A DNA stretch of 64,000 nucleotides from Candidatus Latescibacterota bacterium (lineage in GTDB: Bacteria > Latescibacterota > UBA2968): NCBI GenBank assembly GCA_965204375.1, contig OZ241986.1:2432001-2496000 (forward strand), given 5' to 3'. Made by a program: the position numbers and the translations under genes. Shown here one piece after another: positions 893 through 16,590 of this stretch (positions within the stretch are counted from its first letter, which is position 1; every line of letters begins with the position of its first letter). The notes below the pieces were generated by a model that was given only the letters and a program-made list of their open reading frames with translations, did not search any database and was not told where the DNA came from.

Positions 893-3217
893 ATGAATAA
901 AAAGACCCTGAACGAAACAGAAATATGCGACCTCTTCATTACCCCTGCGATCAGCAAGGCCGGATGGGATCAGCACACTCAGATCCGCCGTGAATACACC
1001 TTCACTGCTGGTCAGGTCTGCCTCCAAGGCAATCTAGCTTCGCGTGACAGGAGAAGGCGGGCCGACTACGTGCTATTCTACCGACCAAATCTACCGCTGG
1101 CTGTGGTTGAAGCTAAGGATAACCGTCATTTAGTCGGATATGGGATGCGGCAAGCACTTGATTACGCTGAAGCTCTTGATGTGCCGTTTGTATTTTCATC
1201 AAACGGCGACGCCTTCCTGTTCCACGACCGTACCGGCCGGTCCTCCCCAATAGAAAAGCAACTTAGCCTGGACCAGTTCCCCTCCCCGGACGATTTGTGG
1301 CAGCAATACCGGATATGGAAGGAACTTGACGATACCTCTGACAAACTCGCGAGGCAGCCTTACCACGAAGACTTTGAAGGTAAAAATCTTCGCTACTATC
1401 AGCGCATCGCTATTCAGCGGGCAGTTGAGGCTATCGCACAGGGACAGCGTCGAGTGCTGCTGGTCATGGCTACCGGTACGGGCAAGACATTCACTGTATT
1501 TCAGATTATATGGCGACTATGGAAAGCCGAGAAGGTCAAGCGGGTACTGTTTCTCGTGGACCGAAACATTCTCGCAGATCAAGCCGTCACCAACGACTTC
1601 AAGCCCTTCGGGTCGGTAATGACCAAGGTGGGGAATCGCAATATGGACCCAAGCTATGAGGTCTATGTCGCACTCTACCAGGCCGTCAGCGGTAGCGAGG
1701 AAGAGAAGAACGTCTATCGTCAGTTCAGTCGAGGTTTTTTTGACCTTGTTGTCATTGATGAGTGTCACCGGGGCAGTGCCCGAGAGGACAGCGCGTGGCG
1801 GGAAATCCTCGATTACTTTGAACCTGCCATCCAACTCGGCCTTACGGCAACACCAAAGGAGACCACGGAGGTCAGCACACTTACCTACTTTGGGGAACCC
1901 ATTTACAGCTACAGCCTTAAGCAAGGCATTGAAGACGGCTTTCTCGCACCGTTTAAGGTTATGCGTATCGACCTCGACAGAGACTTACAAGGCTGGCGCC
2001 CTCCAGCGGGCATGACCGATGATCTCGGACAAGAGATTGAAGATCGCATCTACAACCAGCACGACATGGACCGGGTGCTAATCCTGAATGAGCGCACTCA
2101 GCGCGTCGCCGAGAAAGTCGTTGAGTATATGTTATCCACCGATCCCTACGGCAAAACTATTGTCTTTTGCGAAAATATTGACCATGCCGAAAGAATGCGT
2201 TCAGCACTGGTCAACGAAGTCGCTAAACATCTGCCAGAGGAGGCCGGTAATATTTCAAAATTTGTAGTCCGCATTACTGGCGATAGCGACGAGGGCCGAC
2301 TCGCACTCGATGACTTCATCCACCCCGAACGACGCTATCCGGTCATTGCCACTACCTCAAAGCTGTTGACGACAGGCGTGGACGTCAGGACCTGCAAACT
2401 CATTGTGATAGACCAGCGCATTGAGTCGTTGATTGAGTTCAAACAGATCATTGGACGTGGAACGCGCATCCACGAAGATATGGGCAAGCTCTGGTTCACT
2501 ATCATGGACTTCAGAAAGGCAACGGAGCAGTTTGCTGATCCGGACTTCGATGGAACTCCGATAGTTATCTACGAACCTCATAGAGACTATCCCATTCTGT
2601 CAGATGATAACGAGAAAAATGGAGACGATAAAGATTTACCGATAGAAGGTGGGACACGATACATAGTTAGCGACGTTGAAGTGCAAGTCTTAGCCGAACG
2701 CGTTCATTACCTGGATCGGAACGGCAAGCTCATCACCGAGTCGTTGACCGACTACACTCGAAAGACCGTCCAGCAGGAGTATGCCACGCTCAACGATTTT
2801 CTAAAGCGATGGAACGAGGCTGATCGGAAGGCGGCCATCATAGACGAGTTGGGCAATCAAGGCGTCCTGTTTGAAGAGTTGCGGTCGCAGGTCGGCAGAG
2901 AATACGATGCATTCGACTTGATATGCCACATAGTGTACGATCAGCCTCTGCTTACTCGACGCCAGCGAGCTAAGAAGGTCAAAGAACGGGACGTTTTCAC
3001 TCGTTACGGCACACAAGCCCGCGCTGTCCTCAACGCTCTAATCGACAAGTACGCGGACGAGGGGCTAACTGCTGTTGAAGACCTCGGCATCCTGCGCGTA
3101 CAACCTATATCCGACCTCGGCACCCCAGTAGAATTAGTCCGGCACTTCGGTGGTAAAGACGAATATATTGCCGCTGTGCAGGCACTTGCCGAAGCCCTCT
3201 ACGACCAAGTAGCATAA
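893..3217 (+). CDS. hsdR: Type I restriction enzyme R subunit (EcoAI/EcoEI-like)
   Basis: Nuclease motif ADY...VVEAK, Walker A ATGTGKT, DECH, LTATP and QIIGRGTR; followed by hsdM and hsdS. Confidence 0.95.
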   Translation: MNKKTLNETEICDLFITPAISKAGWDQHTQIRREYTFTAGQVCLQGNLASRDRRRRADYVLFYRPNLPLAVVEAKDNRHLVGYGMRQALDYAEALDVPFVFSSNGDAFLFHDRTGRSSPIEKQLSLDQFPSPDDLWQQYRIWKELDDTSDKLARQPYHEDFEGKNLRYYQRIAIQRAVEAIAQGQRRVLLVMATGTGKTFTVFQIIWRLWKAEKVKRVLFLVDRNILADQAVTNDFKPFGSVMTKVGNRNMDPSYEVYVALYQAVSGSEEEKNVYRQFSRGFFDLVVIDECHRGSAREDSAWREILDYFEPAIQLGLTATPKETTEVSTLTYFGEPIYSYSLKQGIEDGFLAPFKVMRIDLDRDLQGWRPPAGMTDDLGQEIEDRIYNQHDMDRVLILNERTQRVAEKVVEYMLSTDPYGKTIVFCENIDHAERMRSALVNEVAKHLPEEAGNISKFVVRITGDSDEGRLALDDFIHPERRYPVIATTSKLLTTGVDVRTCKLIVIDQRIESLIEFKQIIGRGTRIHEDMGKLWFTIMDFRKATEQFADPDFDGTPIVIYEPHRDYPILSDDNEKNGDDKDLPIEGGTRYIVSDVEVQVLAERVHYLDRNGKLITESLTDYTRKTVQQEYATLNDFLKRWNEADRKAAIIDELGNQGVLFEELRSQVGREYDAFDLICHIVYDQPLLTRRQRAKKVKERDVFTRYGTQARAVLNALIDKYADEGLTAVEDLGILRVQPISDLGTPVELVRHFGGKDEYIAAVQALAEALYDQVA

Positions 3218-3280
3218 GGTGAAGACGCTTGATCAATGCGTAATACTATCCACCAAACTGAACAAAGGAGAGCCTGACCT

Positions 3281-4783
3281 ATGGCCCTATCCACCACTAT
3301 CAAATCCATCCAGGACATCATGCGTAAGGATGTGGGCGTCGATGGTGACGCTCAGCGCATTGGTCAACTTGTCTGGCTGCTATTTCTCAAAATATGGGAT
3401 GATCGAGAGCAGGAATTAGAGATGCTCGAAGACCATTTCAGGTCTCCTTTGATCGACGTAACCTGGATGGAGGAAGGCGAGACCCGCACCGCTGCGGACT
3501 TGCGCTGGAGTGCCTGGGCCGCTGATCCGGAGGGTGATACTGGCGATAAACTGCTCAGCTTTGTCAACGATACGCTATTTCCCGCGCTCAAGGGCATGGA
3601 GGTCGGATCGCTCGCAGAGGATGCGCGTGTGCTCCGCTGTCGCCTGGTGCGCAGCGTCTTTGAGGACGCTTACCAGTACATGAAATCCGGCACCCTGCTG
3701 CGACAGGTCATCAACAAAATCCAATCCGACATCGACTTCAACGACGCCACGAACCGGCACTTATTCGGAAATATCTACGAGCAACTCCTCAAAGATCTCC
3801 AGGGAGCCGGGAACGCTGGTGAATATTACACGCCGAGGGCAGTGACCCAATTCGCGGTGGATATGATCAATCCTCGCCTCGGTGAATCCATTCTGGACCC
3901 GGCCTGTGGAACTGGTGGCTTTTTGTCGTGTGCCATTGAGCACATTCGCCGGCAGGACGTAAAGACACCCGAACAAGAGGCTCAACTACAAGAAAGTATT
4001 CAGGGCGTAGAGAAGAAGCCTCTACCACACTTGCTTTGCACCACCAACATGATTGTGCATGGCATTGACGTACCAACTGGCATTCAGCACAAAAACTCTC
4101 TGTCCCGTCCACTACACGATATCGGCATGAGTGACCGGGTCGATGTGGTGCTTACCAATCCGCCATTTGGCGGCATGGAGGAGGACGGAATTGAGGGTAA
4201 CTTTCCAGCCCAGTTCCGTACCCGTGAGACCGCAGATCTGTTCCTGGTATTGATCGTGGAGTTACTCAAGCCCGGTGGCCGTGCCGCAGTAGTTCTACCG
4301 GACGGGACCTTATTCGGCGAGGGCGTGAAGACGCGCCTGAAAGAACGCCTGCTCACCGAATGCGAATTGCACACCATCGTGCGCCTGCCCAACGGGGTAT
4401 TCGCACCGTACACCAGCATCAAAACCAACCTGCTATTTTTTGAGAAAGGGAGACCGACCACCGAGGTTTGGTACTACGAGCACCCCTACCCGGAAGGCTA
4501 CAAGTCCTACTCCAAGACCAAACCGATGCGGATTGAAGAGTTTGAGCCAGAAAAAGCGTGGTGGGACAATCGGGTCGAAAGTGAGTTCGCGTGGAAAGTC
4601 GGCATTGACGAGATACGCGAGCGTGGCTTCAATCTCGACATCGCCAACCCCAACGCGGTTGAGAGCGGCCACGGCGATCCGGATAAACTATTGGCATTAT
4701 ATAAAAAGGAACAAATAGAGATGGCAAAAGTGCGGGATCAACTAAAGCAGGCGTTGTCCGAGGCATTGGAGAGAACAGCATGA
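3281..4783 (+). CDS. hsdM: Type I R-M N6-adenine methyltransferase M subunit
   Basis: GEYYTPR, SAM motif DPACGTGGF, catalytic NPPF; GGAG RBS upstream. Confidence 0.95.
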   Translation: MALSTTIKSIQDIMRKDVGVDGDAQRIGQLVWLLFLKIWDDREQELEMLEDHFRSPLIDVTWMEEGETRTAADLRWSAWAADPEGDTGDKLLSFVNDTLFPALKGMEVGSLAEDARVLRCRLVRSVFEDAYQYMKSGTLLRQVINKIQSDIDFNDATNRHLFGNIYEQLLKDLQGAGNAGEYYTPRAVTQFAVDMINPRLGESILDPACGTGGFLSCAIEHIRRQDVKTPEQEAQLQESIQGVEKKPLPHLLCTTNMIVHGIDVPTGIQHKNSLSRPLHDIGMSDRVDVVLTNPPFGGMEEDGIEGNFPAQFRTRETADLFLVLIVELLKPGGRAAVVLPDGTLFGEGVKTRLKERLLTECELHTIVRLPNGVFAPYTSIKTNLLFFEKGRPTTEVWYYEHPYPEGYKSYSKTKPMRIEEFEPEKAWWDNRVESEFAWKVGIDEIRERGFNLDIANPNAVESGHGDPDKLLALYKKEQIEMAKVRDQLKQALSEALERTA

Positions 4784-5622
4784 CGACGCGGGAATTTATA
4801 GAGGTCTTTGATACGATTGTGGAGGCGCCGGGGGGGATTGATCGGTTGAGGGAGTTGGTACTCCATCTTGCGGTGCGCGGGCGGCTGGTGCCGCAGAACC
4901 CGAATGATGAACCGGTGAGTATGTTGATTGCTGAAATTAAGGCAGAAAAAGAACGGCTCCTTAGTAAAAAAATCATTACCAAATCCCGCTACCCCTCCGG
5001 AGTCTCTATTGAACCAAAACCCTTTGAAGTTCCCGAAAAGTGGCAATGGTTTCGCTTGGGTGATGTCGGCGCAATAGTGGGGGGTGGCACTCCGAAGAGC
5101 AGTGAGCCTTCTTTCTGGAGTGATGGTCAAGATATTCCTTGGCTTACACCAGCGGACATGCGAGGACAGTCCTCTCGTTATATCTTGCGAGGGGCTCGCG
5201 ACATTACATCCGAGGGCCTCAATAGATCGTCCGCTCAGATGCTACCAGCAGGGTCAGTTTTGTTTTCAAGTCGGGCGCCGATTGGATATGTTGGTATTGC
5301 AGCCAATCCGCTCAGTACTAACCAAGGCTTCAAATCCTGTGTACCCTATATTCCAGCCATGTCGAATTATCTGTACGTATTTCTCAAGTATGCCGGGCCA
5401 GGAATTGACAAGCAAGCTACGGGAACGACATTTAAGGAAGTGCCAGGCAAAGAATTTGCACTTATTCCGGTACCGATCCCACCTCTTGCTGAACAGCATC
5501 GCATCGTCGCCAAGGTTGATGAGCTTATGGAACTGATTGACCGGTTGGAGCAACACCTCGTTGCCAAAGGGAAGTATCACGAAGCCTTCGCAGCGGCTGC
5601 CATACACCACACAGAAGATTGA
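4780..5622 (+). CDS. hsdS: Type I R-M specificity subunit, half-size (single TRD)
   Basis: LAVRGRLVPQ..DEP, P..W...LG and PIPPLAEQHRIVAKVDELM motifs. Only one TRD in 280 aa; ATGA overlap with hsdM. Confidence 0.85.
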   Translation: MTTREFIEVFDTIVEAPGGIDRLRELVLHLAVRGRLVPQNPNDEPVSMLIAEIKAEKERLLSKKIITKSRYPSGVSIEPKPFEVPEKWQWFRLGDVGAIVGGGTPKSSEPSFWSDGQDIPWLTPADMRGQSSRYILRGARDITSEGLNRSSAQMLPAGSVLFSSRAPIGYVGIAANPLSTNQGFKSCVPYIPAMSNYLYVFLKYAGPGIDKQATGTTFKEVPGKEFALIPVPIPPLAEQHRIVAKVDELMELIDRLEQHLVAKGKYHEAFAAAAIHHTED

Positions 5623-5712: not shown

Positions 5713-7083
5713 TCAACACAATGCAGTCGTATATCCAGGGTTGAGAGACAGAAAGTTTTGGGGATTGGGAACGGCTAAGCGATGATCAACAGAGAGCAGA
5801 TCGAGATCAATCAACTGATAGGGATTCTCGCCGTTTAGAAGGCGTAGCACTTGGGACAATACCAGCGTAGCAGCCACGGTGCCTACGAAGGGTGCGCCGA
5901 CCGCTTTGCCAGCCAGAAGTGTAACGCCGCAACGATCCAGTTCGCCACTTTTGAGCATTTCTTGATAGGCCGGGCGATCCTCAACTGTTTCGGAGAATGC
6001 CGTCGGTTTCCAAATCTCCTTTGCCGAACGTGAACCCGGTAGTACGTGCAGACGTATGGTACGGAAATTTTGTTGTCCTCTACCAAGCCCTGCTTCAACA
6101 ACCAGATCAAATCCTACTTGATCAAGTGCTCGCCTTCCAAGCGCATTATCCAAACCACACAACGCGATAGCTGGTTCTTCATCTTGGCGGTGGAAACTGT
6201 CATCAAACCGTCGCTCTTGTACCGCTGTCGCAAACCCGCGCCGTTCTGCCCAAGCAGCCATGGCACGGGTCTTTTTTTCACCCACCATTGTCGCGTTGCT
6301 CAAAATAGATGTGCTTTCAGTTGATGGAGTAATCTCGTCTATATCTTGCAGCACAAGAGAGAGATTTTCTGGATCCTTATAAGGCAGTAACCCAAGTCCC
6401 CAAAGATACGCTTGTCCTAGATGTCCAAGCCCAATCATCCAAAGTCGCGATGGAAGATAGGTTATCTGAGGTTCGTTTGGGTCAGATGCGAGCCAATTGT
6501 TATCTACTGTGGGTTGCCACAGCGATAGTCCTATCGGTCTTCTCCCCGCTGCAGAATCGCCTCTGTCCACAAACAGGAAGGCTTCATTGATCGCAAGGCC
6601 AGCGGACAGCATAGCCGCCAGTGGTATAGTAGGTCCAGGGGCTGGCTTTAGCACTGAATGAACTGGAAGGATGCCACCTCGCCAACCAGCGGCTGCCGTG
6701 CGGATATGAAATCTAGAGCATCTTGGTTGAGGACCTCCGCCGATAACAATGGTCGGCGTTCCATCATCAGAAGGTTCAAACGAGCCACCGAGTTCTGTCA
6801 CGGCCTCATGGAGCCTGCCCGGTAAAGGTAGTGGTAATTTCAGTGGCACATCTAAGTCGCCTTCTACGGAAACCCCGCCGAGGAATACACGCCGTCCAAG
6901 TGCAACCGCTGTCAACAACGCAATTTGATTGAGTGAATTTTGCGACTCAACTCCGTGGATGGTAAGCGCAAGGCGATAGCCTTGAAAGAGATTCTCAGCC
7001 TCGGCGAGAGTTCGGGCTTTTCCGCTATCAAGTGCGTACTTGACTAAGCGGTGTAGGTAATTGGCGTCTGGTTTGGTATTCAT
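5713..7083 (-). CDS. bilD: ThiF/E1-like ubiquitin-activating enzyme (BilD-like)
   Basis: Degenerate N-terminal adenylation-like domain plus an active one (IGLGHLG, QDID, GEKKT, LCGLDN..GR, EAGLG). Candidate catalytic Cys in DRCG. Last gene of a Ubl-E2-JAB-E1 operon. Confidence 0.8.
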   Translation of the reverse strand: MNTKPDANYLHRLVKYALDSGKARTLAEAENLFQGYRLALTIHGVESQNSLNQIALLTAVALGRRVFLGGVSVEGDLDVPLKLPLPLPGRLHEAVTELGGSFEPSDDGTPTIVIGGGPQPRCSRFHIRTAAAGWRGGILPVHSVLKPAPGPTIPLAAMLSAGLAINEAFLFVDRGDSAAGRRPIGLSLWQPTVDNNWLASDPNEPQITYLPSRLWMIGLGHLGQAYLWGLGLLPYKDPENLSLVLQDIDEITPSTESTSILSNATMVGEKKTRAMAAWAERRGFATAVQERRFDDSFHRQDEEPAIALCGLDNALGRRALDQVGFDLVVEAGLGRGQQNFRTIRLHVLPGSRSAKEIWKPTAFSETVEDRPAYQEMLKSGELDRCGVTLLAGKAVGAPFVGTVAATLVLSQVLRLLNGENPYQLIDLDLLSVDHRLAVPNPQNFLSLNPGYTTALC

Positions 7084-7095
7084 GGACAAATCTCT

Positions 7096-7614
7096 CTATA
7101 GACCGATGTGAAAAAAAGCCCTGCGAGCAGCGGGCGTAATGGTTTCCCAATGCTTCGCACCTTGGTAGCGATAGATACCGATTTGGCGCTTTGATATGGG
7201 ACCTGTAGCGAAGTGAGGAAGAATTAGTGCCAAATGACCTGCCTGTGCAATCATGGGATAAGCGCGATCTGACTCACTCTGCTGCGATCCACCAGGATGG
7301 ACATGAATATCGGCCACGACAACCAACCCTCTCTCTTTGCAAAGTGTCCAGAGCATCCCGAAGTATCGCCCGTCGAAGCGGACTATGCCGGTATCAAGGC
7401 AATGTGGATCGAGATCATCATACAGGACAAAATCAGTGATACGAGCACGTTGATCGTTTTGGTGACCTAGTAGAAAAGCACCGCTTTCCCTAGACTTACC
7501 GTGTCCCCGCTCCCGTAAGCAGACCAGCAAACGCCGCCAAAGAAACCAAGAACAGGACAACTCATGTCGCGGTGCAAAGAGGCGACGTATAGTCTCCGCT
7601 ATGAAGAAGTTCAT
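7096..7614 (-). CDS. bilC: JAB/MPN metalloprotease, deubiquitinase (BilC-like)
   Basis: JAMM motif: RESGAFLLG ... DIHVHP...QSESD. Start placed at ATG 7614, overlapping the E2 3' end. Confidence 0.85.
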
Positions 7615-8035
7615 GGACGATCTCCAAGTATTGAACAATGCCTTCTACCGGACGCCAGATTTTTGACGGTATCTCGGTTCTCCAGTTTTCATGCCCAGCG
7701 AAGCTTTCACGATCACAAGGCAGGTACAACGCAGAGCCATTCTTCCAGTCAGGGCGAAAAACTGCAGAAACGCGGCCACCTTGGCCTTGTGGCCAGAGAC
7801 TGAATTCCAAGATGGTATTTTGCTCGGGATCCCATGGGCCACCCGTAGGCGGGGTTTGTGGATACCCCTCGCAGTTGAAGCGCAACACATATTGACGCTT
7901 ATCCTTCGCGGTCACTGAGATCAAGGCAAAGGGCCAGTCAATACGAATCAGGCACCAGCGTCCTTCTACTTGTCCAAGGCGGAACGCAGCCTTGGACAAG
8001 TCAGACTCGAATGCCCGCTGGTCGGGGGTACTCAA
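7562..8035 (-). CDS. bilB: Prokaryotic E2 conjugating enzyme (BilB-like)
   Basis: UBC-like [13 protein letters not shown] segment and candidate catalytic Cys in ALYLPCDR; lies between the Ubl and JAB genes. Confidence 0.75.
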
Positions 8036-8541
8036 GCTATGCCTCCAGTTGAGCCGTTCACCCTCTCGTCAGGAGTAAGGTCAAATGCCTGGCTGCAATC
8101 AAGACAATCCACCAGTGTGCCGATATGCGTCCCAGGGGTCGGCCTTTCGTGAGTGCCTACGATTTGCAGAGCATACTCACCGGCGTCTTTTGGCTCCATT
8201 CCAAATGCCTTTTCTGCTGCCCAACACTTGACACGGGCGATGGTCGCACTTGGCCCGAAACTGTGATCAACTGTGTGGCCATTGAAGGTCACGCTGACTT
8301 TGACGAGACAACAGCGATTCAGGTGGATCTTTATACCCGTCTCCTCAACGCAATCAATCACCTTCCAGTCTTCGTCAAGTGGTTCATCTTTGTCCTCCAA
8401 GAAGAGACACACGTCGCTGGCGAGGCTGTGCTTGTCGATCAACTCAGCCTTGACTATTGCGAATGTAGCGTCGTCTTCAACTTCGACATGCTGGATCTCG
8501 CGGATCCCTTCACACTGGTAAAACAGATCGAGTGTATCCAT
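8032..8541 (-). CDS. bilA: Tandem ubiquitin-like (ISG15-like) protein BilA
   Basis: Two ~80-aa beta-grasp-like halves joined at HLNRC; C-terminus [10 protein letters not shown] followed by a 6-aa tail; AGGAGG RBS; first gene of the operon. Confidence 0.75.
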
Positions 8542-8601
8542 AATACTATCCTCCTAAGAGCTAGAGCGAAGCTCCATTGCCCGTCTCTGCTCTTCACTTT
8601 A

Positions 8602-8633
8602 TTAATCGAATGAACAGACAGAAAGCGGAAAGC
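8602..8633 (-). promoter_or_regulatory. Putative alternative-sigma promoter of bilABCD (GCTTTCCG-N17-CGATTAA)
   Basis: Identical boxes and spacing also occur at 13612-13643; this copy is 61 nt upstream of the bilA ATG. Confidence 0.7.
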
Positions 8634-8646
8634 TTTAAAAAAATTT

Positions 8647-11600
8647 TTATGGGAGAGTTAGTGGTCCGCGAGGCGTAGCAGCACAGACAAAAAAATGCGG
8701 GCATCGCGGGCATGTAAATTCGTCGATATTGGAGGGAAACCATCCTTGCGTAATCTCAGCCAACATTTCATTAATCTTACGTCGGTGATTTTGGAGTCTT
8801 GTCGACGAGATCGGCACATTGTCGGATATCCCATCTACAAGGTGCAGCGCTCGAATCACCGCATCGGTACCAAAGTGTTCTTGACCGGCCAACATGTATA
8901 ATATGTAGTCAAGACGGCTATATTCATTACTACGCTTGTGACCAGGGCGAACCTTATATAAAGCGACTTTTTTGTTAGGTAAATCGGTGATCTCATTTGG
9001 TTTTACAAACACGCGACCATTTGGAAAATCTACTGCTAACGGTTCAGCCTCACGGGAATGCCATCCAGTTCTGGCTCTAATTAGGGTACCGACTAATTGC
9101 AAGGCGAGGCGGCGGTATTCGTCAGCGTAAGTATGTGCAACGGGCCCGTGTTTGCTCCAGATTATGTCGAATGTGGCTTCAGCTTCGGCGAGCGTCGGTT
9201 TGACTTCGCGCCAGCGCTCGGATACCCATTGTATTAGTTTGTAGAGACAATCATGGGCTTGCGAATAGGCAGTCGATTTACGAGCACTACCAAGGCCCAA
9301 TATATGGGTGTAGAAGAAACGGCGAGGACATTTCTCATAGGAAATAAGCTGACTGTCTGTGACGTGCCATTCGGTAGATTGCTCCACTTGGATAGGTATC
9401 GGACTTTGTATGTTAGCTGGCCGCGGCAAGACCACCGGATGGACAATTTTGTCGATTGTCCTATCTGGTAGCCAATCTAAGAAAGGAGATGATGATCGGT
9501 TCTTGCCACTGACACTTCGACGTGCTAAGTGGAGGCGCAGATAGGTCCGCGCTCGCGAGAGCGCAACGAAAAACAGGCATTCCTCCTCGTTTTGGTGGTT
9601 CAGCTTGGCCTCTTTAGTGACTGAAAAACCATCTACCCCTTCAATCATGCCGACTGGCGGTGGGCATCGCACGCCGCGGTACGACGTTGGCAAGCTCGAA
9701 ACCGTCAGTCCGGGTACATGGACCGCTTCAAACTCCAGACCTTTACTACCATGAATGGTCATCAGCCTCACTGCATTCATACGGAGTGCGGCGACAGGCA
9801 CTTGACGTAAATCTCGCTCTTCAGCGAGTAGTACGAGCCGACGGATACGTTCTAGCGTTCGCTGAATCAGTAAACCCGTGCCACTCGGAATCTGCTCGCG
9901 GATAAAATTAAGGAACTGCCAAACTGCAATACTCCGAATGCGGTCAGTGACCATCGTAGCTTGGGCCATCTCACGGACGAGGCTAGTGCGGTCAAGCAGA
10001 TACGTTGAAAGAAACTCCCAAGCGGACAAGTTAGTAGAGAGTCCCGATAGGTCCTGCGCGAGACGAGTAAGTGCTGACGCACCTTCAGGAGAGATACCTT
10101 GAGCCTTAGCGAGTGTTTCTATACCCGAAAGGGCTGGCTGATTGCTCTCTCGCAAATAGCGCGAGGCGGTATAGGCATCTTGCAACGAGAGACCGTAGCG
10201 CGGCATTGCTCCTACCCGCGTAAGACCATCACCAAATGGATCAACCGCAAGGCTTAGAAGTGCTAGTAAATCACGCACTTCCTCGCGCTCAAACAAGCTA
10301 CCGAGATGAAGAGAAGGAATGCCGTATGCTTCAAGTGCTGTGGCGATTTCACTAAGACGACGGTTTGAGCGACAGAGTACGGCCTGATCGCGAAGGGGAA
10401 CGCCAGCACATTCGAGTTCTCGAATGCTTCCGGCGATACCTCCGACTTCGTCGTCGGGTGTGTTGTAACATCGGACTTCTGGTTTTCCGGGACCAATGCC
10501 TCGGTCAGCATCAAGGTTGAGTGGTAACATGTCCTTGGATTTGGATGCACCCATCTGGGGAGCTACAGCAACGAAACTCGCAACAATCTGCTCCGTTGAT
10601 CTGTAGTTGGTAGTAAGTTGATCAATTACGGCCCCAGGATAGTCGTCGCAAAAACGAGCCATGTTGGTAGAGGACGCTCCCCGGAAGCGGTATATGGACT
10701 GGCGTGAGTCTCCAACTACCCACAGACGCTTGCCATCACCGGCGACTGCTTTCAACAAGCGTGCGCTCGCCCGGTTTACATCTTGGTACTCATCAACCAG
10801 AAGATGTCGGTGCCGCAATTGAACTGCGTGCTTGATTGCCGGATCGGATTCCAATAGTAGTACAGGTTGCATAATGAGATCGCCAAAGTCGATAGCATCT
10901 TGTTCACTCATAACGCTTTCATAGAGGTCGTATATATCGGCGATTTCCAAACACTTCTCGGCTGCTATGCGAGCTTCATCGTCGCATGCAGATGATCGCA
11001 TAGCCTCAGCGAGCTTGCGATAGTGGAACCGATCAGCAAGTTCATCCTTAGCCCGCGAGATGGCAGGAATTACATCTCGTAGTACTATCGTTGGGTCCCA
11101 GAAGTTGCGGTAGTGGACAAGGGGCAAAGTCGGAAGGATATCTTCAAGCATCTCAATCGCATCACTGCGGTCTAACAAAATTGGATCAGGGGATAAGCCA
11201 AGGCGGTCATGGTGTCGACGTATCAGATCAAGCCCGAAAGCATGGAATGTCCCAATCCAAATACGTTCAGCGGCCTCGGGCACTATGGCCATAAGTCGTT
11301 CCAGCAGTTCGCCAGCGGCTCGGTTTGAGAAGGTCAGGACGAGCAAAGCGGAAGGATCAATACCCTCTGCTATAAGTGATTCTACACGCTTTACTAACGT
11401 CCGCGTTTTTCCCGTTCCCGGCCCAGCCTGAAGCAGAAACGGGGCGTTGCGGTGTGTAGCTGCACGGTCCTGTGATGGATCCGAGATCAATGTCTGGATT
11501 GAAGCCATGGTAGAAGTTTCACCTTCTACTGTTTCATCTTCTACCGTGGGAAGTAAACAGGCATCAAATATCTGCTGCCGAACGAGTGCCTTTGGCAGAT

Positions 11601-12093
11601 TCATTTGCGAAGCGATAGCCGAGGCGGTCATTTTCTCTTTAAGATGAAGCCGACGTGCGAGACTCCGAGGTAATAGAAATTCCCGAGCGAAAACATCGGC
11701 CTGTAGTTCGCGTCGCTCCCGCGTACCATAGTCTTCGACACGTTGCAAACCAACGGGTACCGTCTCTGTTGAACGGGATGGGTCAATGTCACTCTCAGTA
11801 CAAGCCATCGAACCAGTGTGGGCATGTGCATGTCCAAGTTCATGAGCCACTAACAACGCACGTTTAATGACATCCTCTGTCTGTTCACAGCAGATTGTCC
11901 TGCTCTGTTCGTCAAACACAGCCCGGGCATTTTTAAGAGCTGGATCACCTGGTTCAAGCCAGAAGAGTTCAAGGTCGAGGTAAGCCACAGCAGCAGTAAT
12001 AAGTGCCGTAGTATCCAAAGGGTCTATCCCCCCTGAGATAATCTTATCGTGTAGATGTGCCGCGGACTTTCGAATTGGCTCAAATGCGTCCAT
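8647..12093 (-). CDS. Fusion of ImmA/IrrE Zn-metallopeptidase, UvrD/SF1A helicase and degenerate PD-(D/E)XK nuclease with Fe-S cysteines
   Basis: AHELGH...ELQADVFAREFLLP; helicase motifs AGPGTGKT, TFSNRAA, DEYQD, GDSRQSIYRFRGA, NYRS, TIHGSKGLEF and VALSRAR; CPRRFFY and CPRCPHFFVC at the C-terminus. Confidence 0.85.
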   Translation of the reverse strand: MDAFEPIRKSAAHLHDKIISGGIDPLDTTALITAAVAYLDLELFWLEPGDPALKNARAVFDEQSRTICCEQTEDVIKRALLVAHELGHAHAHTGSMACTESDIDPSRSTETVPVGLQRVEDYGTRERRELQADVFAREFLLPRSLARRLHLKEKMTASAIASQMNLPKALVRQQIFDACLLPTVEDETVEGETSTMASIQTLISDPSQDRAATHRNAPFLLQAGPGTGKTRTLVKRVESLIAEGIDPSALLVLTFSNRAAGELLERLMAIVPEAAERIWIGTFHAFGLDLIRRHHDRLGLSPDPILLDRSDAIEMLEDILPTLPLVHYRNFWDPTIVLRDVIPAISRAKDELADRFHYRKLAEAMRSSACDDEARIAAEKCLEIADIYDLYESVMSEQDAIDFGDLIMQPVLLLESDPAIKHAVQLRHRHLLVDEYQDVNRASARLLKAVAGDGKRLWVVGDSRQSIYRFRGASSTNMARFCDDYPGAVIDQLTTNYRSTEQIVASFVAVAPQMGASKSKDMLPLNLDADRGIGPGKPEVRCYNTPDDEVGGIAGSIRELECAGVPLRDQAVLCRSNRRLSEIATALEAYGIPSLHLGSLFEREEVRDLLALLSLAVDPFGDGLTRVGAMPRYGLSLQDAYTASRYLRESNQPALSGIETLAKAQGISPEGASALTRLAQDLSGLSTNLSAWEFLSTYLLDRTSLVREMAQATMVTDRIRSIAVWQFLNFIREQIPSGTGLLIQRTLERIRRLVLLAEERDLRQVPVAALRMNAVRLMTIHGSKGLEFEAVHVPGLTVSSLPTSYRGVRCPPPVGMIEGVDGFSVTKEAKLNHQNEEECLFFVALSRARTYLRLHLARRSVSGKNRSSSPFLDWLPDRTIDKIVHPVVLPRPANIQSPIPIQVEQSTEWHVTDSQLISYEKCPRRFFYTHILGLGSARKSTAYSQAHDCLYKLIQWVSERWREVKPTLAEAEATFDIIWSKHGPVAHTYADEYRRLALQLVGTLIRARTGWHSREAEPLAVDFPNGRVFVKPNEITDLPNKKVALYKVRPGHKRSNEYSRLDYILYMLAGQEHFGTDAVIRALHLVDGISDNVPISSTRLQNHRRKINEMLAEITQGWFPSNIDEFTCPRCPHFFVCAATPRGPLTLP

Positions 12094-12096
12094 AGA

Positions 12097-12750
12097 TTAG
12101 AACCTCAGAAGTTGATGCTTTTGTCCCTCGTTGAGAGCCGAACTCTGAATAGCCTCGACAAAGCTCTGTTGCTGGCTGCTCTCAGGCTTATTGTCAGCCT
12201 TGTAAAACTGATGACTAGCACTCACACTTGGTGCAGCAAAGTGGGCAGTTAATAGGTTAGGTGTAATCCCTAGTACATCTGCAAGGTACTGTAGAAAACT
12301 ACGTGGAATGGTATCCGGCTTGATTTGGCGATCTCGCAGCTTGATAACGAAAACAGTGTTCACGTCGATTCGATCCGCTAAAGCTCGAAAATCTACCTGG
12401 CTTAGTTCAGCGATGGGATTGGGAGCATCTGTAACTCCCAGCAAAGGAACGTGGTCACTTGGCGCCCTGGTCGCTTGGCGCACCGTGTGTAAACGATTCT
12501 GGAATCGACTTATTGCGCGCGAGACGGCGGGACTCACATAGTTTAGATCAATCTCCGCCTCCGCGTCGACTTCTAGCTCAGGTCGGAGAACGTCCATAGC
12601 GAGTTCAATAGCGAATTCCGTGAGTGAATCGGCATACTGAGGGAACCGCCGAACGAAATCGTCAAGAAGTTCTGCGTCGGGTACACTCTTCGCTAGCGAA
12701 AGATCATACAACACATCACGCAATGGTGCCCCGCTGGGGATCAGGGTCAA
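12097..12750 (-). CDS. Hypothetical protein, putative anti-sigma domain plus XRE-like HTH
   Basis: GGAGGAGG RBS and TTG start 2 nt after the sigma stop. Helical N-terminus (LLDDFVRRFPQYADSL) and HTH-like FRALADRIDVN...LQYLADVLGI. Confidence 0.55.
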   Translation of the reverse strand: MTLIPSGAPLRDVLYDLSLAKSVPDAELLDDFVRRFPQYADSLTEFAIELAMDVLRPELEVDAEAEIDLNYVSPAVSRAISRFQNRLHTVRQATRAPSDHVPLLGVTDAPNPIAELSQVDFRALADRIDVNTVFVIKLRDRQIKPDTIPRSFLQYLADVLGITPNLLTAHFAAPSVSASHQFYKADNKPESSQQQSFVEAIQSSALNEGQKHQLLRF

Positions 12751-12752
12751 GG

Positions 12753-13553
12753 TTATACCTCCTCCTTAAATATAGAAAGTTTTACTGCTGCCCTTGACAG
12801 GCGGTTACGAATAGTTCGGCCAGAGACTTTGCAGATAGTCGCTACTGTCACTTCATCGGGGTTCCGAGATTCAATCTTGTATCCCATTACATGGCAGAGT
12901 ATGACAGCCTCACGCTCGTCATCCGGCAAGGTATCAATCGCTTCGTAAATCTCTTTTAGTAGAGCAGCACTGTCGGTTTTCTCTGGACTCTGCAAGGCTT
13001 CTATGAGTCGGGCGGGAATTTCCTTATGGGTGTGAGACTCGGGCGCATCGGCTTGACTCGGAAGGGGTCTGAATCGCTTGAGACGAGTTCTTTCACTTCG
13101 GATCAGATCTTTGTAAAAAGCACGAAACGCCAGATTGAAACGACATTCGAAATAGTCAAGACGGTCACGATTTTCTTCCGTACCATCGGTGGCAAATAAC
13201 TCGCTGAACTGCCCAAGTACTTCTTCCCGGACATATGCCGCGTTTGAAAGTTCGTTATCCTGTATTTTGGCCAACAACATTTTTTCACATCGGGTGAGCA
13301 AAATAGGAAACACTGCATTTAATATAGCGTCGTCGTTATTTCGACAAGCATTCCGGATTAGATATACCAGACATTCAGAAAGTAAATAGTTGGGTAACTG
13401 AGCGTCAGTGACAGTGAGGCGGTGCTTAAGCGTTGCCAACTTCTGGGAAAGAATCTTATTGATCTGTGCCTCTACTCGCTCCGGACGGACGTATAAATTT
13501 CCGTCTGAATTTCTTTTCGTCAATGGGCGAGCCATTATCTTCTTTTTACGCAT
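12753..13553 (-). CDS. ECF-like sigma-70 family RNA polymerase sigma factor
   Basis: Region-4 signature IYEAIDTLPDDEREAVILCH...VATICKVSGRTIRNRLSRA and a region-2-like segment. Start moved to ATG 13553 (AAGGA RBS); ATG 13535 is an alternative. Confidence 0.75.
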   Translation of the reverse strand: MRKKKIMARPLTKRNSDGNLYVRPERVEAQINKILSQKLATLKHRLTVTDAQLPNYLLSECLVYLIRNACRNNDDAILNAVFPILLTRCEKMLLAKIQDNELSNAAYVREEVLGQFSELFATDGTEENRDRLDYFECRFNLAFRAFYKDLIRSERTRLKRFRPLPSQADAPESHTHKEIPARLIEALQSPEKTDSAALLKEIYEAIDTLPDDEREAVILCHVMGYKIESRNPDEVTVATICKVSGRTIRNRLSRAAVKLSIFKEEV

Positions 13554-13611
13554 ATCTTCCTTTCTTTTTTTATGCAACATCAGATAGCGAGTAGGGTTTC
13601 TTCCTACTCTT

Positions 13612-13643
13612 TTAATCGTATTGTAATGGAAAAGCCGGAAAGC
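13612..13643 (-). promoter_or_regulatory. Putative autoregulatory alternative-sigma promoter (GCTTTCCG-N17-CGATTAA)
   Basis: Same boxes and spacing as 8602-8633; 59 nt upstream of the sigma ATG. Confidence 0.7.
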
Positions 13644-13741: not shown

Positions 13742-13785
13742 TATCTTTACAAATAGAAGATACCAGATTATAATATTTTCGTCAA
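13742..13785. promoter_or_regulatory. Overlapping opposed sigma-70 promoters with a candidate XRE operator
   Basis: Plus strand TTTACA(13746)-N17-TATAAT(13769); minus strand TTGACG(13785)-N17-TATCTT(13762); inverted repeat TATCTT-N9-AAGATA at 13742-13762. Confidence 0.6.
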
Positions 13786-13809: not shown

Positions 13810-14181
13810 ATGAAAAGAAAAATTTCATCTAAACCATCTGAGGTCTTCAAGGACCGCCTTCGAGCGGCACGGGAAAATCTCCGTCAAATGACTCAGGTTG
13901 ATCTCGCCAGAGCAATCGGTCTGCCGCCAAGTTCCATTGCTCATTTCGAGAGTGGTAATAGAAAGCCCTCGTTTGATAATCTACACAAGATAGCCAACGC
14001 GCTAAACGTGACGACCGATTATCTCGTTGGTCGAGCGGATGATCCAAACACCACCGCGTCGGCCGATCCGATCTATCGGCACGTTGCGAATCTCACGGAT
14101 CAGAACCGCAGAACCGCCGAGGACTTTCTCCGTTTTCTCTCCGAACAAGACCGGAGACAACGCGAGGGCGATCATCAATGA
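13810..14181 (+). CDS. XRE-family HTH repressor (CapH/ImmR-like)
   Basis: MTQVDLARAIGLPPSSIAHFESGNRKPS HTH; C-terminal IYRHVANLT oligomerisation-like segment; ATGA overlap with the peptidase. Confidence 0.9.
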   Translation: MKRKISSKPSEVFKDRLRAARENLRQMTQVDLARAIGLPPSSIAHFESGNRKPSFDNLHKIANALNVTTDYLVGRADDPNTTASADPIYRHVANLTDQNRRTAEDFLRFLSEQDRRQREGDHQ

Positions 14182-15065
14182 GGAAAGTATCCAGCCATCG
14201 TCAAAAGTCGCTGGTGCGAAGAGCTGAACGGTTACTCCAAGACGAAAGCCTTTTGGAGTTGCCTGTTGACCTTGAAGCCCTGGCCCAGACCCGAGGGATA
14301 TTCGTTCAGGAAATGGAGTCGGACGAGGAAGGGGTATCGGGCATGCTCCTGCGCTATGGTGACACATTTGGGATCCTATATTCTACTCAAATTCCGAACA
14401 TAGGATTTCAGCAGTTCAGTATCGCCCACGAACTCGGTCACTACTTTATTGACGGCCATCTGGACCAAATTCCATTCGACGGTAATATGCACCGTTCACG
14501 GGCAGGTTTCGTCTCCAATAATTATTACGAACGCGAGGCCGACCACTTCGCCGCCGGTCTCTTGATGCCAATTACACCCGTTCGCAGGATTATTGACAGA
14601 TCTCCCGGCGGTTTTGGCAGCATCGAAGCTATTCAGCAGGAAACGAATGCCTCTCTTACAGCCGCAGCTATCCGCTATGTTGGAATGACAGACGAGGCTG
14701 TGGCCATCATTGTCAGTAGCGATGGAATCGTCGATTATTGTTTTATGTCCGAGACTATGAGGTCGTTAGAAGGAATAGAGTGGCTACATAAAGGTACGCT
14801 GGTCCCATCAGATACCACTACAGAGTCTATTTGGAATAAATCGGAAGAAGAGCAGCGCGAGGCTTATGCCGAAGACGACGTCGATATCACGGCTTGGTTT
14901 GGGGGCCACAGGTCAGTTGCAGCCTGGGAGGAAGTAATCGGACTCGGAACCTATGGACGAATACTAACAGTTCTGACCTGTCCTGATCTAATCGATGATG
15001 ACTATATGGACGAGGTCTCTGACGAGGCATTGGAGGAGAGTTGGACACCTCGGTTTCGGCGTTAA
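14178..15065 (+). CDS. ImmA/IrrE-family metallopeptidase (CapP-like)
   Basis: FSIAHELGHY, EREADHFAAGLLMP, SLTAAAIRY and a C-terminal GAF-like region. Confidence 0.9.
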   Translation: MRKVSSHRQKSLVRRAERLLQDESLLELPVDLEALAQTRGIFVQEMESDEEGVSGMLLRYGDTFGILYSTQIPNIGFQQFSIAHELGHYFIDGHLDQIPFDGNMHRSRAGFVSNNYYEREADHFAAGLLMPITPVRRIIDRSPGGFGSIEAIQQETNASLTAAAIRYVGMTDEAVAIIVSSDGIVDYCFMSETMRSLEGIEWLHKGTLVPSDTTTESIWNKSEEEQREAYAEDDVDITAWFGGHRSVAAWEEVIGLGTYGRILTVLTCPDLIDDDYMDEVSDEALEESWTPRFRR

Positions 15066-15162
15066 GCAACCGTTAGGCTATATCCATGCATACTGTAATG
15101 GAATTACTTGAATACATGCGTCGTGTAAAACAGTGGGTAAAGGAGTTTTAAAAATACTTCTT

Positions 15163-16590
15163 ATGGAAAAGTTTAAAAAAATAAAACAACTTTCAGAACT
15201 AAACTTTTCAAATAGAGGAGAATCATTTGTTGAGTCTAAGTTTTTGACGCCTCTATTAGATTGTTTAGGCTATGAGAGTCATAATGACTATGAGGTTCGC
15301 CGACACGGTGATACAGGAACATCTTTCAAACTTAATTATCCCCCAGTAGAGAAAGGAGCAAAAAAAGTAAAGTACTACAACCCAGATTATATGCCTACAA
15401 TCCGCAAGAAGATATTTTGGATTATAGAAGCAAAATCGCCTAAATTGGTGCCTTACCCTTTTGAGTATAAGTACATTGTGCAAGGACTTCAGTACTGTAT
15501 TCATCCCGAAATCCAAGCAAAATACCTTGTTCTGAGTAACGGTAAACACACCTGTATATATGATCCTCATTCAGCGATATTCTTTAATGAGAACATCTAT
15601 GAGCCAGTGTTTGAGTTTAGAAGTAATGAAGTTTATGAAAAATGGGAGGAAGTATATAATTTTTTAGGCGTTGAGAAGCTAAGATCAAAAATAGAAGACA
15701 GCCTAAAAAGTTATTATGAAAAACTGTGCCTATCTTCTCTTGATGAGGACTATCCTGAAAAAGTTGGAAAAAAAATAACTAGCGAGCAATCCGCACTAAA
15801 ACATCAAATACGGAACCACGTAGCAAAGCTATATGTTAAAATGACAGATGACGACTACTCCCGGCTTCAACATAAGTACGAAAACTTTTCATTAGCTAAT
15901 CTAGAGAATTATATGAAGAATCCTGTAACAAGAGGTAAAGAGCCATCCCAACATTATGTAGAAAAGTTGCTCAAAGAAAAGCCGCCTGATGAGATATTTT
16001 CTTTGCTTATTTCTAATTACAACGATTTCAGTTTTTTCCAAAAACAACACTCTATGGTTGCGGTCTGCCACTTGCATAATCTAATAGGTAATTCTCAATT
16101 GAAACAGACTATAAAGGCTTATGTCCTTCGCAAAATATCAGACAAGATTCCCATACTGAATAAAGCAGAAAGTGCCTTTCTAAGAGTGATTAGAAAACTA
16201 TTAATTATCGGAGAATATCCCAAAATAAGACAAGTGCTATCTGAGTATTTAAGGTCGCTTCCTGAAATAGATAGATTTGTCAATCCGCCAACGCCTCTAT
16301 ACTACACATATCCAATTGAGCTAATACTTCACGATCATTATTTTAAGATTCTTAAGAATATGACTTCAGAAGAGTTAGAGTTGTTAACCCAAAAACTGCT
16401 TAAAGAAGAAGCCGAAATTGAACAAGCCTTTACAGAAGCTTGGGAATCACTACCAGGTAATGAAAAAGAAATAAATGGTTTCGAGTCTTATGGATTGGGG
16501 GACAAAATGTATACACTTGGAAATATAGCTAAGAATTTTGGTATAATCTCACGAGAACACTTAGACTCTTTGCGAATTATTCGACACTAA
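15163..16590 (+). CDS. AT-rich hypothetical protein with an N-terminal HsdR_N-like PD-(D/E)XK nuclease domain
   Basis: PDY...IIEAK...QGLQY...VLSNG pattern followed by a long helical region. Start uncertain (15133 or 15163). Confidence 0.6.
   Translation: MEKFKKIKQLSELNFSNRGESFVESKFLTPLLDCLGYESHNDYEVRRHGDTGTSFKLNYPPVEKGAKKVKYYNPDYMPTIRKKIFWIIEAKSPKLVPYPFEYKYIVQGLQYCIHPEIQAKYLVLSNGKHTCIYDPHSAIFFNENIYEPVFEFRSNEVYEKWEEVYNFLGVEKLRSKIEDSLKSYYEKLCLSSLDEDYPEKVGKKITSEQSALKHQIRNHVAKLYVKMTDDDYSRLQHKYENFSLANLENYMKNPVTRGKEPSQHYVEKLLKEKPPDEIFSLLISNYNDFSFFQKQHSMVAVCHLHNLIGNSQLKQTIKAYVLRKISDKIPILNKAESAFLRVIRKLLIIGEYPKIRQVLSEYLRSLPEIDRFVNPPTPLYYTYPIELILHDHYFKILKNMTSEELELLTQKLLKEEAEIEQAFTEAWESLPGNEKEINGFESYGLGDKMYTLGNIAKNFGIISREHLDSLRIIRH

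Follow-up and report, generated by a model that had tools for sequence, protein, structure and literature searches.

The window analysed here is a 64,000-nucleotide stretch of a Candidatus Latescibacterota genome (assembly GCA_965204375.1, contig OZ241986.1, positions 2,432,001 to 2,496,000) that carries, on its minus strand, a Bil operon for ubiquitin-like conjugation. A two-box motif, GCTTTCCG-N17-CGATTAA, is present twice, once at the start of each half of a conserved operon. The first half encodes a sigma factor-like protein of the extracytoplasmic function (ECF) type, a protein that we refer to as X, and a Peptidase_M78-UvrD-PD-(D/E)XK fusion; the second half, beginning after a 105-nt gap, comprises bilA, bilB, bilC and bilD (Table 1). 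We predict that the motif is a -35/-10 promoter read by the adjacent ECF-like sigma factor and serving a small local regulon, a reading to which we assign a probability of about 0.85. The sigma factor, its partner inhibitor and the protease-helicase appear to compose an undescribed on/off switch for ubiquitin-like anti-phage operons. Anti-phage activity via conjugation of the ubiquitin-like protein is known from other Bil members (10.1101/2022.05.11.491447, 10.1101/2024.11.21.623953), which have been studied under inducible, not native, promoters (10.1101/2022.05.11.491447).

Table 1. Features of the Bil locus and its surroundings (window positions; strand; description)
Feature	Positions	Strand	Description
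Promoter P1 (predicted)	13612..13643	-	-35 TTTCCGG 13635-13641, -10 CGATTAA 13612-13618; upstream of sigma gene
ECF-like sigma factor	12753..13553	-	266 aa from 13553; conserved start 13535; PF08281 E 1.9e-7
Internal copy position P3	12935..12962	-	inside sigma gene, ~185 nt before X; degenerate here, CTACTA-N16-CGATTG
Protein X, putative soluble anti-sigma factor	12097..12750	-	four N-terminal helices, XRE-like helix-turn-helix, QFxKA linker, two C-terminal helices
ImmA/IrrE (Peptidase_M78)-UvrD-PD-(D/E)XK-like fusion	8647..12093	-	1148 aa; Pfam; HELGH 11830-11844
Promoter P2 (predicted)	8602..8633	-	in 105-nt gap between uvrD fusion and bilA
Hairpin in bilA leader	8556..8594	-	starts 8 nt past -10 box, ends just before ribosome binding site; -17.7 kcal/mol
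bilA, ubiquitin-like protein of Bil system	8032..8541	-	PADLOC PDLC03844 E 2e-52
bilB (E2)	7562..8035	-	PADLOC PDLC03845 E 2e-62
bilC (JAB peptidase)	7096..7614	-	PADLOC PDLC03846 E 1e-67; PF14464 E 8.6e-5, below its cut-off
bilD (E1)	5713..7089	-	PADLOC PDLC03847 E 1e-165
capH-capP pair, divergent from sigma gene	13810..15065	+	PADLOC capH E 2e-22, capP E 4e-58

The motif copies head both halves of a conserved operon

The initial annotation described two copies with the same 17-nt spacing, the same orientation and differing spacers, and this description is accurate. The spacers agree at 6 of 17 positions and the 20-nt flanks at 4 and 7 of 20, so a recent duplication is ruled out. None of 100 dinucleotide shuffles of the window contains a match, and a scan of the whole genome (6,340,849 bases) returns the same two matches, also with one mismatch allowed. 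Ten further sites appear at two mismatches, and about 0.01 exact pairs are expected from the box frequencies. To allow for the post-hoc choice of motif, both upstream regions were shuffled 5000 times; no shuffle shared any exact pair of an 8-mer and a 7-mer separated by a gap of 14 to 20 nt. The distances from box to ATG, 60 and 58 nt, correspond to the 61 and 59 given earlier as coordinate differences, with the qualification that two Met codons are candidates for the sigma start, and that the alignment of homologues favours the one at 13535, 76 nt from the box, over that at 13553. Transcription would be expected to start at about 13604-13606 from P1 and 8594-8596 from P2.

An alignment of 69 sigma homologues led to 72 genome loci and 80 metagenome loci. 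Where the contig had room, X is the next gene in 123 of 129 loci, 114 of 122 have the helicase fusion, and 78 of 89 have the complete set of four bil genes. A gapped 5-mer pair count blind to the motif, run separately on the regions before the sigma gene and before bilA, recovers TTCCG...CGAT with equal spacing in each. With up to two mismatches to TTTCCG/CGATYA, the motif occurs in 118 of 121 distinct sigma upstream regions (100 without mismatch) and in 81 of 81 distinct bilA upstream regions (65 without mismatch), the latter always with a spacer of 17 nt. Of 1723 random 150-nt windows drawn from these loci, 98 come within two mismatches and 10 within one. Conservation at orthologous loci had been set as a test beforehand, and TTTCCGG-N16-CGAT(C/T)A is found at both sites, with no more than two mismatches over 13 positions, in 79 of 79 distinct loci including that of the window, counts that express conservation and not independent trials since the sample consists of related loci that also served to refine the consensus. 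The conserved core is cTTTCCGGnTT-N13-CGAT(C/T)Aa. Outside this core is the leading G of the motif as originally defined, which shows no conservation (52% and 32% G at the two sites). The motif is kept across records of Alpha-, Beta- and Gammaproteobacteria, Acidobacteria and Latescibacterota.

Bil loci that lack the sigma module also lack the motif. Among 37 plasmid records with a BilD match, 18 were examined, of which 12 carry the sigma-X module and six do not; these six have no X match, no sigma-profile match and no motif within 400 nt of bilA, and the call of module absence rests on X and on annotation because the sigma profile also missed two sigma-type loci. A BilA search of 401 genomes of one class gave four with a match: two (the centre genome and one other) have the helicase fusion and the motif, and the other two have a capP-like gene and no motif. 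Together with locus L320, the motif is thus found in none of nine Bil loci without the module, L320 being judged, like L314 and L315, on a flank of about 1.5 kb, and having insertion-sequence-like DNA upstream, as does L282. This absence, the fixed spacer length, the variable spacer bases and the single orientation support the earlier view that the copies are promoters and not products of duplication. A few loci are irregular. In L049 the sigma gene runs straight into the end of bilD, L065, L066 and L070 have truncated sigma matches without X, L277 has an insertion sequence in the sigma gene, and L140 has a sigma gene without the upstream motif.

The regulon of the sigma factor appears to be local, not genome-wide. 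Both halves of the operon carry the motif, which the initial annotation took to predict the sigma factor's recognition sequence and regulon, and the genome-wide scan finds no third copy within one mismatch. A matrix built from 136 homologous sites gives three sites above 17.2 bits in the window's genome, including both window copies; the third (C1:3667132, plus strand) has the -10 CTATCA, lies antisense in the 3' end of an mcrB-like open reading frame (ORF) and is probably a chance match. No paralogue of the sigma factor or of X was found in this genome. Exact matches in five other genomes are operon promoters in 8 of 14 cases, and one more is a duplicate of such a promoter. At G005:C1:5065028 (L300), an identical second copy of that genome's sigma promoter lies far from the operon, in a 3-kb locus with no match to the operon proteins. 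The scan of viral contigs gave at least 118 stretches, and among the matches listed two match operon proteins. Strong third copies occur in the three related loci L023 (region 8148-9700), L025 and L103, about 1.85 kb upstream of the sigma gene and before a 505-aa ORF with HG and DACR motifs, which we take to be of the caspase-like family and which could be an extra regulon member. Tandem copies precede bilA in L044 (14842) and L313, and the sigma gene in L278.

The sigma-like protein and its co-variation with the boxes

The gene was initially annotated as an ECF-type sigma factor, and the predicted fold of its product does resemble one. The protein has a putative sigma2 region with a DxxR motif (Asp149, codon 13107-13109), an insertion before the sigma4 helix-turn-helix, and an N-terminal extension of about 55 aa. 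The sigma4 helix-turn-helix domain scores 31 bits against PF08281 (cut-off 25.7), and its VIA alignment to SigD4 and SigC4 covers 61 residues at Z 8.7 and rmsd 1.4. In the model (pLDDT 82, with a low-confidence linker at about 160-190), residues 57-266 align by VIA to sigmaE, and also to AlgU; we attribute the high rmsd of the sigmaE alignment (17.7 over 153 aligned residues, Z 8.9) to a differing placement of the two domains. At the level of sequence pattern, the two boxes with a 16-18 bp spacer, often located before the sigma factor's own gene, are as in ECF promoters. The family comprises 315 clusters at 50% identity (E up to 1e-30), is carried on plasmids and is mostly annotated as hypothetical, LuxR or response regulator proteins, and eight other ORFs in the window's genome match its profile weakly. 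A text search of the 2021 ECF classification, covering the main text and part of the supplement, found no matching context (PMC7826278); that re-classification left out ECF sigma factors with divergent sigma2 and sigma4 domains (PMC7826278).

In more distant Bil loci, the boxes change jointly at the two sites. A two-box search blind to the motif recovers a pair common to both sites that scores above every one of 40 nulls in 7 of 9 such loci, and the boxes differ between clades. The shared boxes are TTCCGAT..CGACT in L276 and L278, TTCCGAT..NTTGTA in L279 and L286, and TTTTT..TCTT in L287, while in L273 and L285 the spacer is 18 nt long at each of the two sites. The test was marginal for L274 (1 of 40 nulls as high) and for L277, in which the sigma gene is split by the insertion sequence (2 of 40). 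In L279 and L286, a mere 7 nt separate the end of the second, -10, box from the annotated ATG of the sigma gene, which is the geometry of a leaderless transcript.

The boxes, unlike the spacer, vary together in the main family: 66 loci retain the -10 CG at both sites, 7 have lost it at both, and in 1 the sites disagree. Agreement between the two sites of a locus is close to chance at spacer positions 11-23 (kappa -0.05 to 0.17) and higher at the C/T position of the -10 box (kappa 0.43). The sigma alignment column that best separates loci with and without CG is Asp149, in the DxxR motif of region 2.4. Among the 74 loci with an extractable sigma sequence (5 of 79 were dropped), the 61 sigma factors with Asp149 all have CG at both sites, and the 13 without it have lost CG at both sites in 6 cases and at one in 2, and kept it in 5. 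The DxxR Asp of another ECF sigma factor reads the -12 G (PMC3397946), and specificity at -12/-13 is set in RpoE by the Asn84 position (PMC7776599), which we take to be the equivalent of Asp149. The link between Asp149 and CG fits the promoter reading without proving it. In the plasmid loci L303-L305 and L308-L311, the -35 box TTACCG is seen with an Asp in the sigma4 recognition helix where the window's protein has Ser (RxxxD and RNRLS, respectively); this pairing counts as one event because it occurs in one clade.

Those loci come from plasmid searches that returned 26 records with X and 91 with the peptidase end of the fusion (45 of the 91 from Acinetobacter), nine of which were examined (L303-L311). 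All nine have the sigma-X-fusion module. It precedes genes for a multi-ubiquitin protein, ThiF and DUF6527 (type II Bub) in four records, multi-ubiquitin and ThiF in one, unannotated genes of similar layout in three, and IS66 in one. A motif copy, mostly with the -35 box TTACCG, directly follows the fusion gene in all nine, and eight have another copy within the sigma gene, some 200 nt ahead of X; in the ninth record this copy is close to the annotated start of the sigma gene. The pattern was set by eye after viewing, and of its matches 18 are at the two expected places and 7 are not. None of the nine loci passed the motif-blind pair test. On one of these plasmids, from Acinetobacter (L309), a mercury-resistance cluster adjoins the Bub-type operon.

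An internal copy at the corresponding place, P3, is also common to the main family; it is degenerate in the window and intact in many homologues. Synonymous codons there are biased, with TTC in 56 of 60 cases (background 0.65), CGG in 42 of 50 (0.24) and GCG in 74 of 100 (0.40), the sequences being related to one another. P3 could serve as a promoter for the anti-sigma factor and sensor, providing negative feedback. The autoregulation from upstream of the sigma gene that the initial annotation proposed has to be amended for the Bub-linked clade, in which the second copy is inside that gene.

A proposed switch and the alternatives to it

Searches of Pfam, PADLOC, PDB sequences and Foldseek, as well as a wide structural search, give no significant match for protein X, and protein-atlas searches lead mostly to unnamed clusters. 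Its model (pLDDT 84) has helices at residues 10-20, 26-35 and 37-55, a low-confidence linker, and a helix at 74-95, so that the N-terminus has the layout of a class I anti-sigma factor: a three-helix bundle, a flexible linker and helix 4. An XRE-like helix-turn-helix gives weak matches, with Z up to 6.3 overall and 4.6-4.8 for CapH, ImmR and DdrO. Further on is a QFxKA linker (12196-12210), in which K184 is present in 75 of 77 homologues. The predicted complex of the sigma factor with X scores 0.73 and the best of three controls 0.02. This mark is reached by 116 of 157 solved complexes and by 2 of 215 mismatched pairs, and the result may partly reflect likeness, because similar complexes have already been solved. 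Runs agree in at least 77% of contacts, with partner pLDDT of at least 72. The confident interface involves only X residues 9-94, and in the model helix 4 lies on sigma2, as it does in class I anti-sigma factors (PMC7406223). Sigma4 residues 187-240 and X residues 9-57 are both in the predicted interface, and presumably pair with each other. X probably inhibits the sigma factor, to judge from this model, and binding DNA elsewhere may be a second job of the protein.

The fusion is a putative sensor and protease whose catalytic motifs are intact: of the distinct homologues, 97 of 98 have HExxH and all 98 have Walker A, while DEYQD is found in 79 of 79 that are full-length. Four conserved Cys mark the C-terminal nuclease-like domain, and the Cys cluster occurs in 79 of 79 full-length homologues. 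An M78 peptidase with HExxH beside an XRE-type helix-turn-helix protein is the arrangement of CapH/CapP, here with a weak helix-turn-helix match; X and the fusion are co-directional with bil, and do not form a stand-alone divergent pair as capH and capP do. No PADLOC model matches X, and the best 25 of the 51 families for the fusion do not include capP.

We hypothesize that the sigma factor transcribes its own gene, X and the peptidase-UvrD-nuclease gene from P1 and bilABCD from P2, which would make a positive-feedback switch, and that X acts as a soluble class I-like anti-sigma factor that keeps sigma2 and sigma4 bound for as long as it is present. Release would most likely occur when the ImmA/IrrE domain of the fusion cuts X at or near the aromatic-Lys linker, a step for which we see even chances, and the trigger might be single-stranded or abnormal DNA from damage or phage replication that is met by the helicase part, which is more tentative. 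Both steps are proposed by analogy with CapP, which cuts CapH between Phe82 and Arg83 and is stimulated by single-stranded DNA (10.1101/2022.04.27.489752). Slightly short of even odds is a broader possibility, that the three genes form a widespread, mobile signalling cassette and a fourth regulator family for Bil and Bub, in which a helicase-nuclease detects phage or damaged DNA and activates the ImmA peptidase fused to it, and this peptidase cuts an anti-sigma/XRE hybrid and frees a private sigma factor. Such a cassette would combine positive feedback at the sigma promoter with an effector promoter and a negative-feedback promoter within the sigma coding sequence.

The motif might instead be an operator for X, with X acting as a peptidase-cleaved XRE protein in the manner of CapH/CapP or ImmR/ImmA, a housekeeping sigma factor doing the transcription and the sigma-like protein secondary. 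The lambda-repressor-like domain of X with its weak CapH, ImmR and DdrO matches, the ImmA/IrrE peptidase that directly follows, and a co-occurrence with the motif as tight as that of the sigma gene (the 123 of 129 loci above) would all agree with this. However, the boxes are not mutual inverted repeats, have a single orientation and lie 16-17 bp apart, which is the geometry of a promoter; no sigma-70 consensus promoter was found at 8400-8800; the -10 changes follow a residue of sigma region 2.4; and the N-terminus of X is predicted to bind the sigma factor. We therefore consider an operator improbable. The -10 consensus of sigma28 is GC-rich. A chromosomal alternative sigma factor of the host, such as FliA or an ECF sigma factor, might be the reader of the motif in place of the local gene product, given that CGAT(C/T)A resembles the sigma28 -10, likewise read by a DxxR motif (PMC3397946), and that the genome holds the eight ORFs with weak profile matches. 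This is less probable still, since the motif is kept across phyla yet nearly absent elsewhere in host genomes, changes with the local sigma factor and is missing where the module is missing. We give as little credence to an old duplication or gene conversion of the upstream region, or to a motif that serves as a signal in recombination or in RNA and not as a promoter. The nearly equal distances of the two copies in the operon, and the agreement of the -10 C/T position within loci somewhat above random, would suit these origins, but the spacers agree barely above chance between nearly invariant boxes, the flanks are unrelated, and further copies are found within the sigma gene, where synonymous codons are biased, and ahead of the unrelated caspase-like gene.

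Several observations weigh against a promoter that is read by the local sigma factor and controlled by X and the fusion. The Pfam scan of the sigma-like protein gives sigma4 only and no sigma2 match, and although the top Foldseek rows of its model are ECF sigma factors, the best E is 0.013 and none reaches 0.001. The class I anti-sigma fold is not among the fold-search matches listed for X. L072 and L274 keep the sigma gene, X, the motif and the bil genes without the helicase fusion, and in the Bub-linked clade no motif copy was found upstream of the sigma gene. The link between Asp149 and CG amounts to two changes on the tree, Asp149 was chosen as the best of all columns, and 5 of 74 loci lack it and still have CG; independent-pairs tests (Asp149 against CG, site against site, and C/T) offer no more than five supported pairs, and none is significant. 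Finally, the loci counted for the motif are kin to one another, and the consensus was tuned on those very loci.

Folding of the leaders bears on P2. The hairpin in the bilA leader is consistent with a transcript that starts at P2: over 41 leaders, 79.6% of cells are paired (74.2% in shuffles), with 37 two-sided changes (16.4 in shuffles), for a structure chosen by hand. This support is weak because RNAalifold alone recovered only three pairs. The sigma leader has a stem-loop at 13589-13609, 3 nt past the -10 box, which on the plus strand is followed by a T run and is terminator-like; the sigma-gene leaders of homologues have no conserved folding signal (mean z -0.23).

Related systems and neighbouring genes

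An ECF switch over a defence island is already known, as are peptidase-cleaved helix-turn-helix regulators of Bil and Bub. In Myxococcus xanthus, the self-promoted ECF sigma factor DdvS drives an anti-phage locus, a CBASS-CRISPR island, and its anti-sigma factor DdvA is proposed to be released by proteolysis (PMC11506125). DdvA resides in the membrane and has a TPR-CHAT sensor in the periplasm, whereas X is predicted to be soluble, with an XRE-like helix-turn-helix and a cytoplasmic ImmA-UvrD-nuclease partner, and the target here is a ubiquitin-like conjugation operon. CapH+CapP, ImmR/ImmA and DdrO/IrrE share with the present pair an M78 metallopeptidase beside an XRE-type helix-turn-helix protein with an aromatic-basic linker (10.1101/2022.04.27.489752), and regulators of the CapH+CapP type lie upstream of 15% of CEHH/6C (BilABCD) and 31% of Bub defence operons. 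CapH, ImmR and DdrO are repressors whose cleavage derepresses, whereas here the helix-turn-helix protein has a predicted sigma-binding N-terminus and the output would be a dedicated sigma factor that has a promoter of its own; unlike CapP, ImmA and IrrE, the peptidase is fused to a helicase-nuclease. The class I pairs RseA-RpoE, ChrR-SigE and RsiW-SigW resemble the predicted complex in the bundle, the linker, helix 4 on sigma2, the CG-containing -10 and the DxxR Asp (PMC7406223). None of them is among the sequence or fold-search matches listed for X, and the sigma factor differs in its length (about 260 aa), N-terminal extension, sigma4 insertion and a sigma2 missed by Pfam.

The downstream genes are standard: both the bilA-bilB-bilC-bilD order and the Bil models place them in type I Bil, and the plasmid relatives of the module head multi-Ubl/ThiF/DUF6527 operons of type II Bub. 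Regulators named for Bil and Bub are CapW, CapH+CapP and CapK+CapS (10.1101/2023.09.04.556158, 10.1101/2024.11.21.623966), and in the Bil and Bub literature searched none is a sigma factor or helicase fusion. We found no published account of the sigma family, its promoter or the sigma/anti-sigma/peptidase-helicase cassette in a search that lay outside the bioRxiv Bil/Bub supplementary tables, part of PMC13373217 and the Todor promoter dataset. If the proposal is true, the proteolytic logic of ImmA and CapP is joined to an ECF switch, and nature supplies sigma-promoter pairs with co-evolving specificities, the diverged family members being candidate orthogonal pairs. The analysis provides exact promoter boxes, a candidate sigma factor, anti-sigma factor and protease, and points to mutate (D149, HELGH and QFxKA), and it predicts that the operons would be silent when cloned with only their native upstream DNA. 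The trigger may reveal the stress or phage answered by Bub operons. The initial annotation overlooked the likely anti-sigma factor X and the peptidase-helicase between the two sites.

A BilA match occurs in 5 of the 168 genomes from the phylum of the window, counting its own, and in none of 30 others of its family, so the locus has a patchy distribution and is probably mobile. The nearest sigma homologues with named records are in metagenome-assembled genomes of Candidatus Latescibacterota (63-69% identity).

The capH-capP pair divergent from the sigma gene was rejected as part of the conserved module, as capP occurs in 0 of 152 homologous loci, many of them with short upstream flanks. At 13742-13785, an inverted repeat, TATCTT-N9-AAGATA (13742-13762), is overlapped by divergent sigma-70-like promoters (plus strand 13746-13774, 11 of 12 matches; minus strand 13785-13757, 9 of 12 with TG). 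The repeat may be a CapH operator and give the sigma gene a second, DNA-damage input at this locus only. The actual target of the pair may be a 485-aa ORF after capP (15133-16590), with a weak HSDR_N nuclease-like match below the cut-off. On the other side of the locus, at 893-5622, type I restriction-modification genes converge on bilD, and their specificity subunit (280 aa) has one target-recognition domain.

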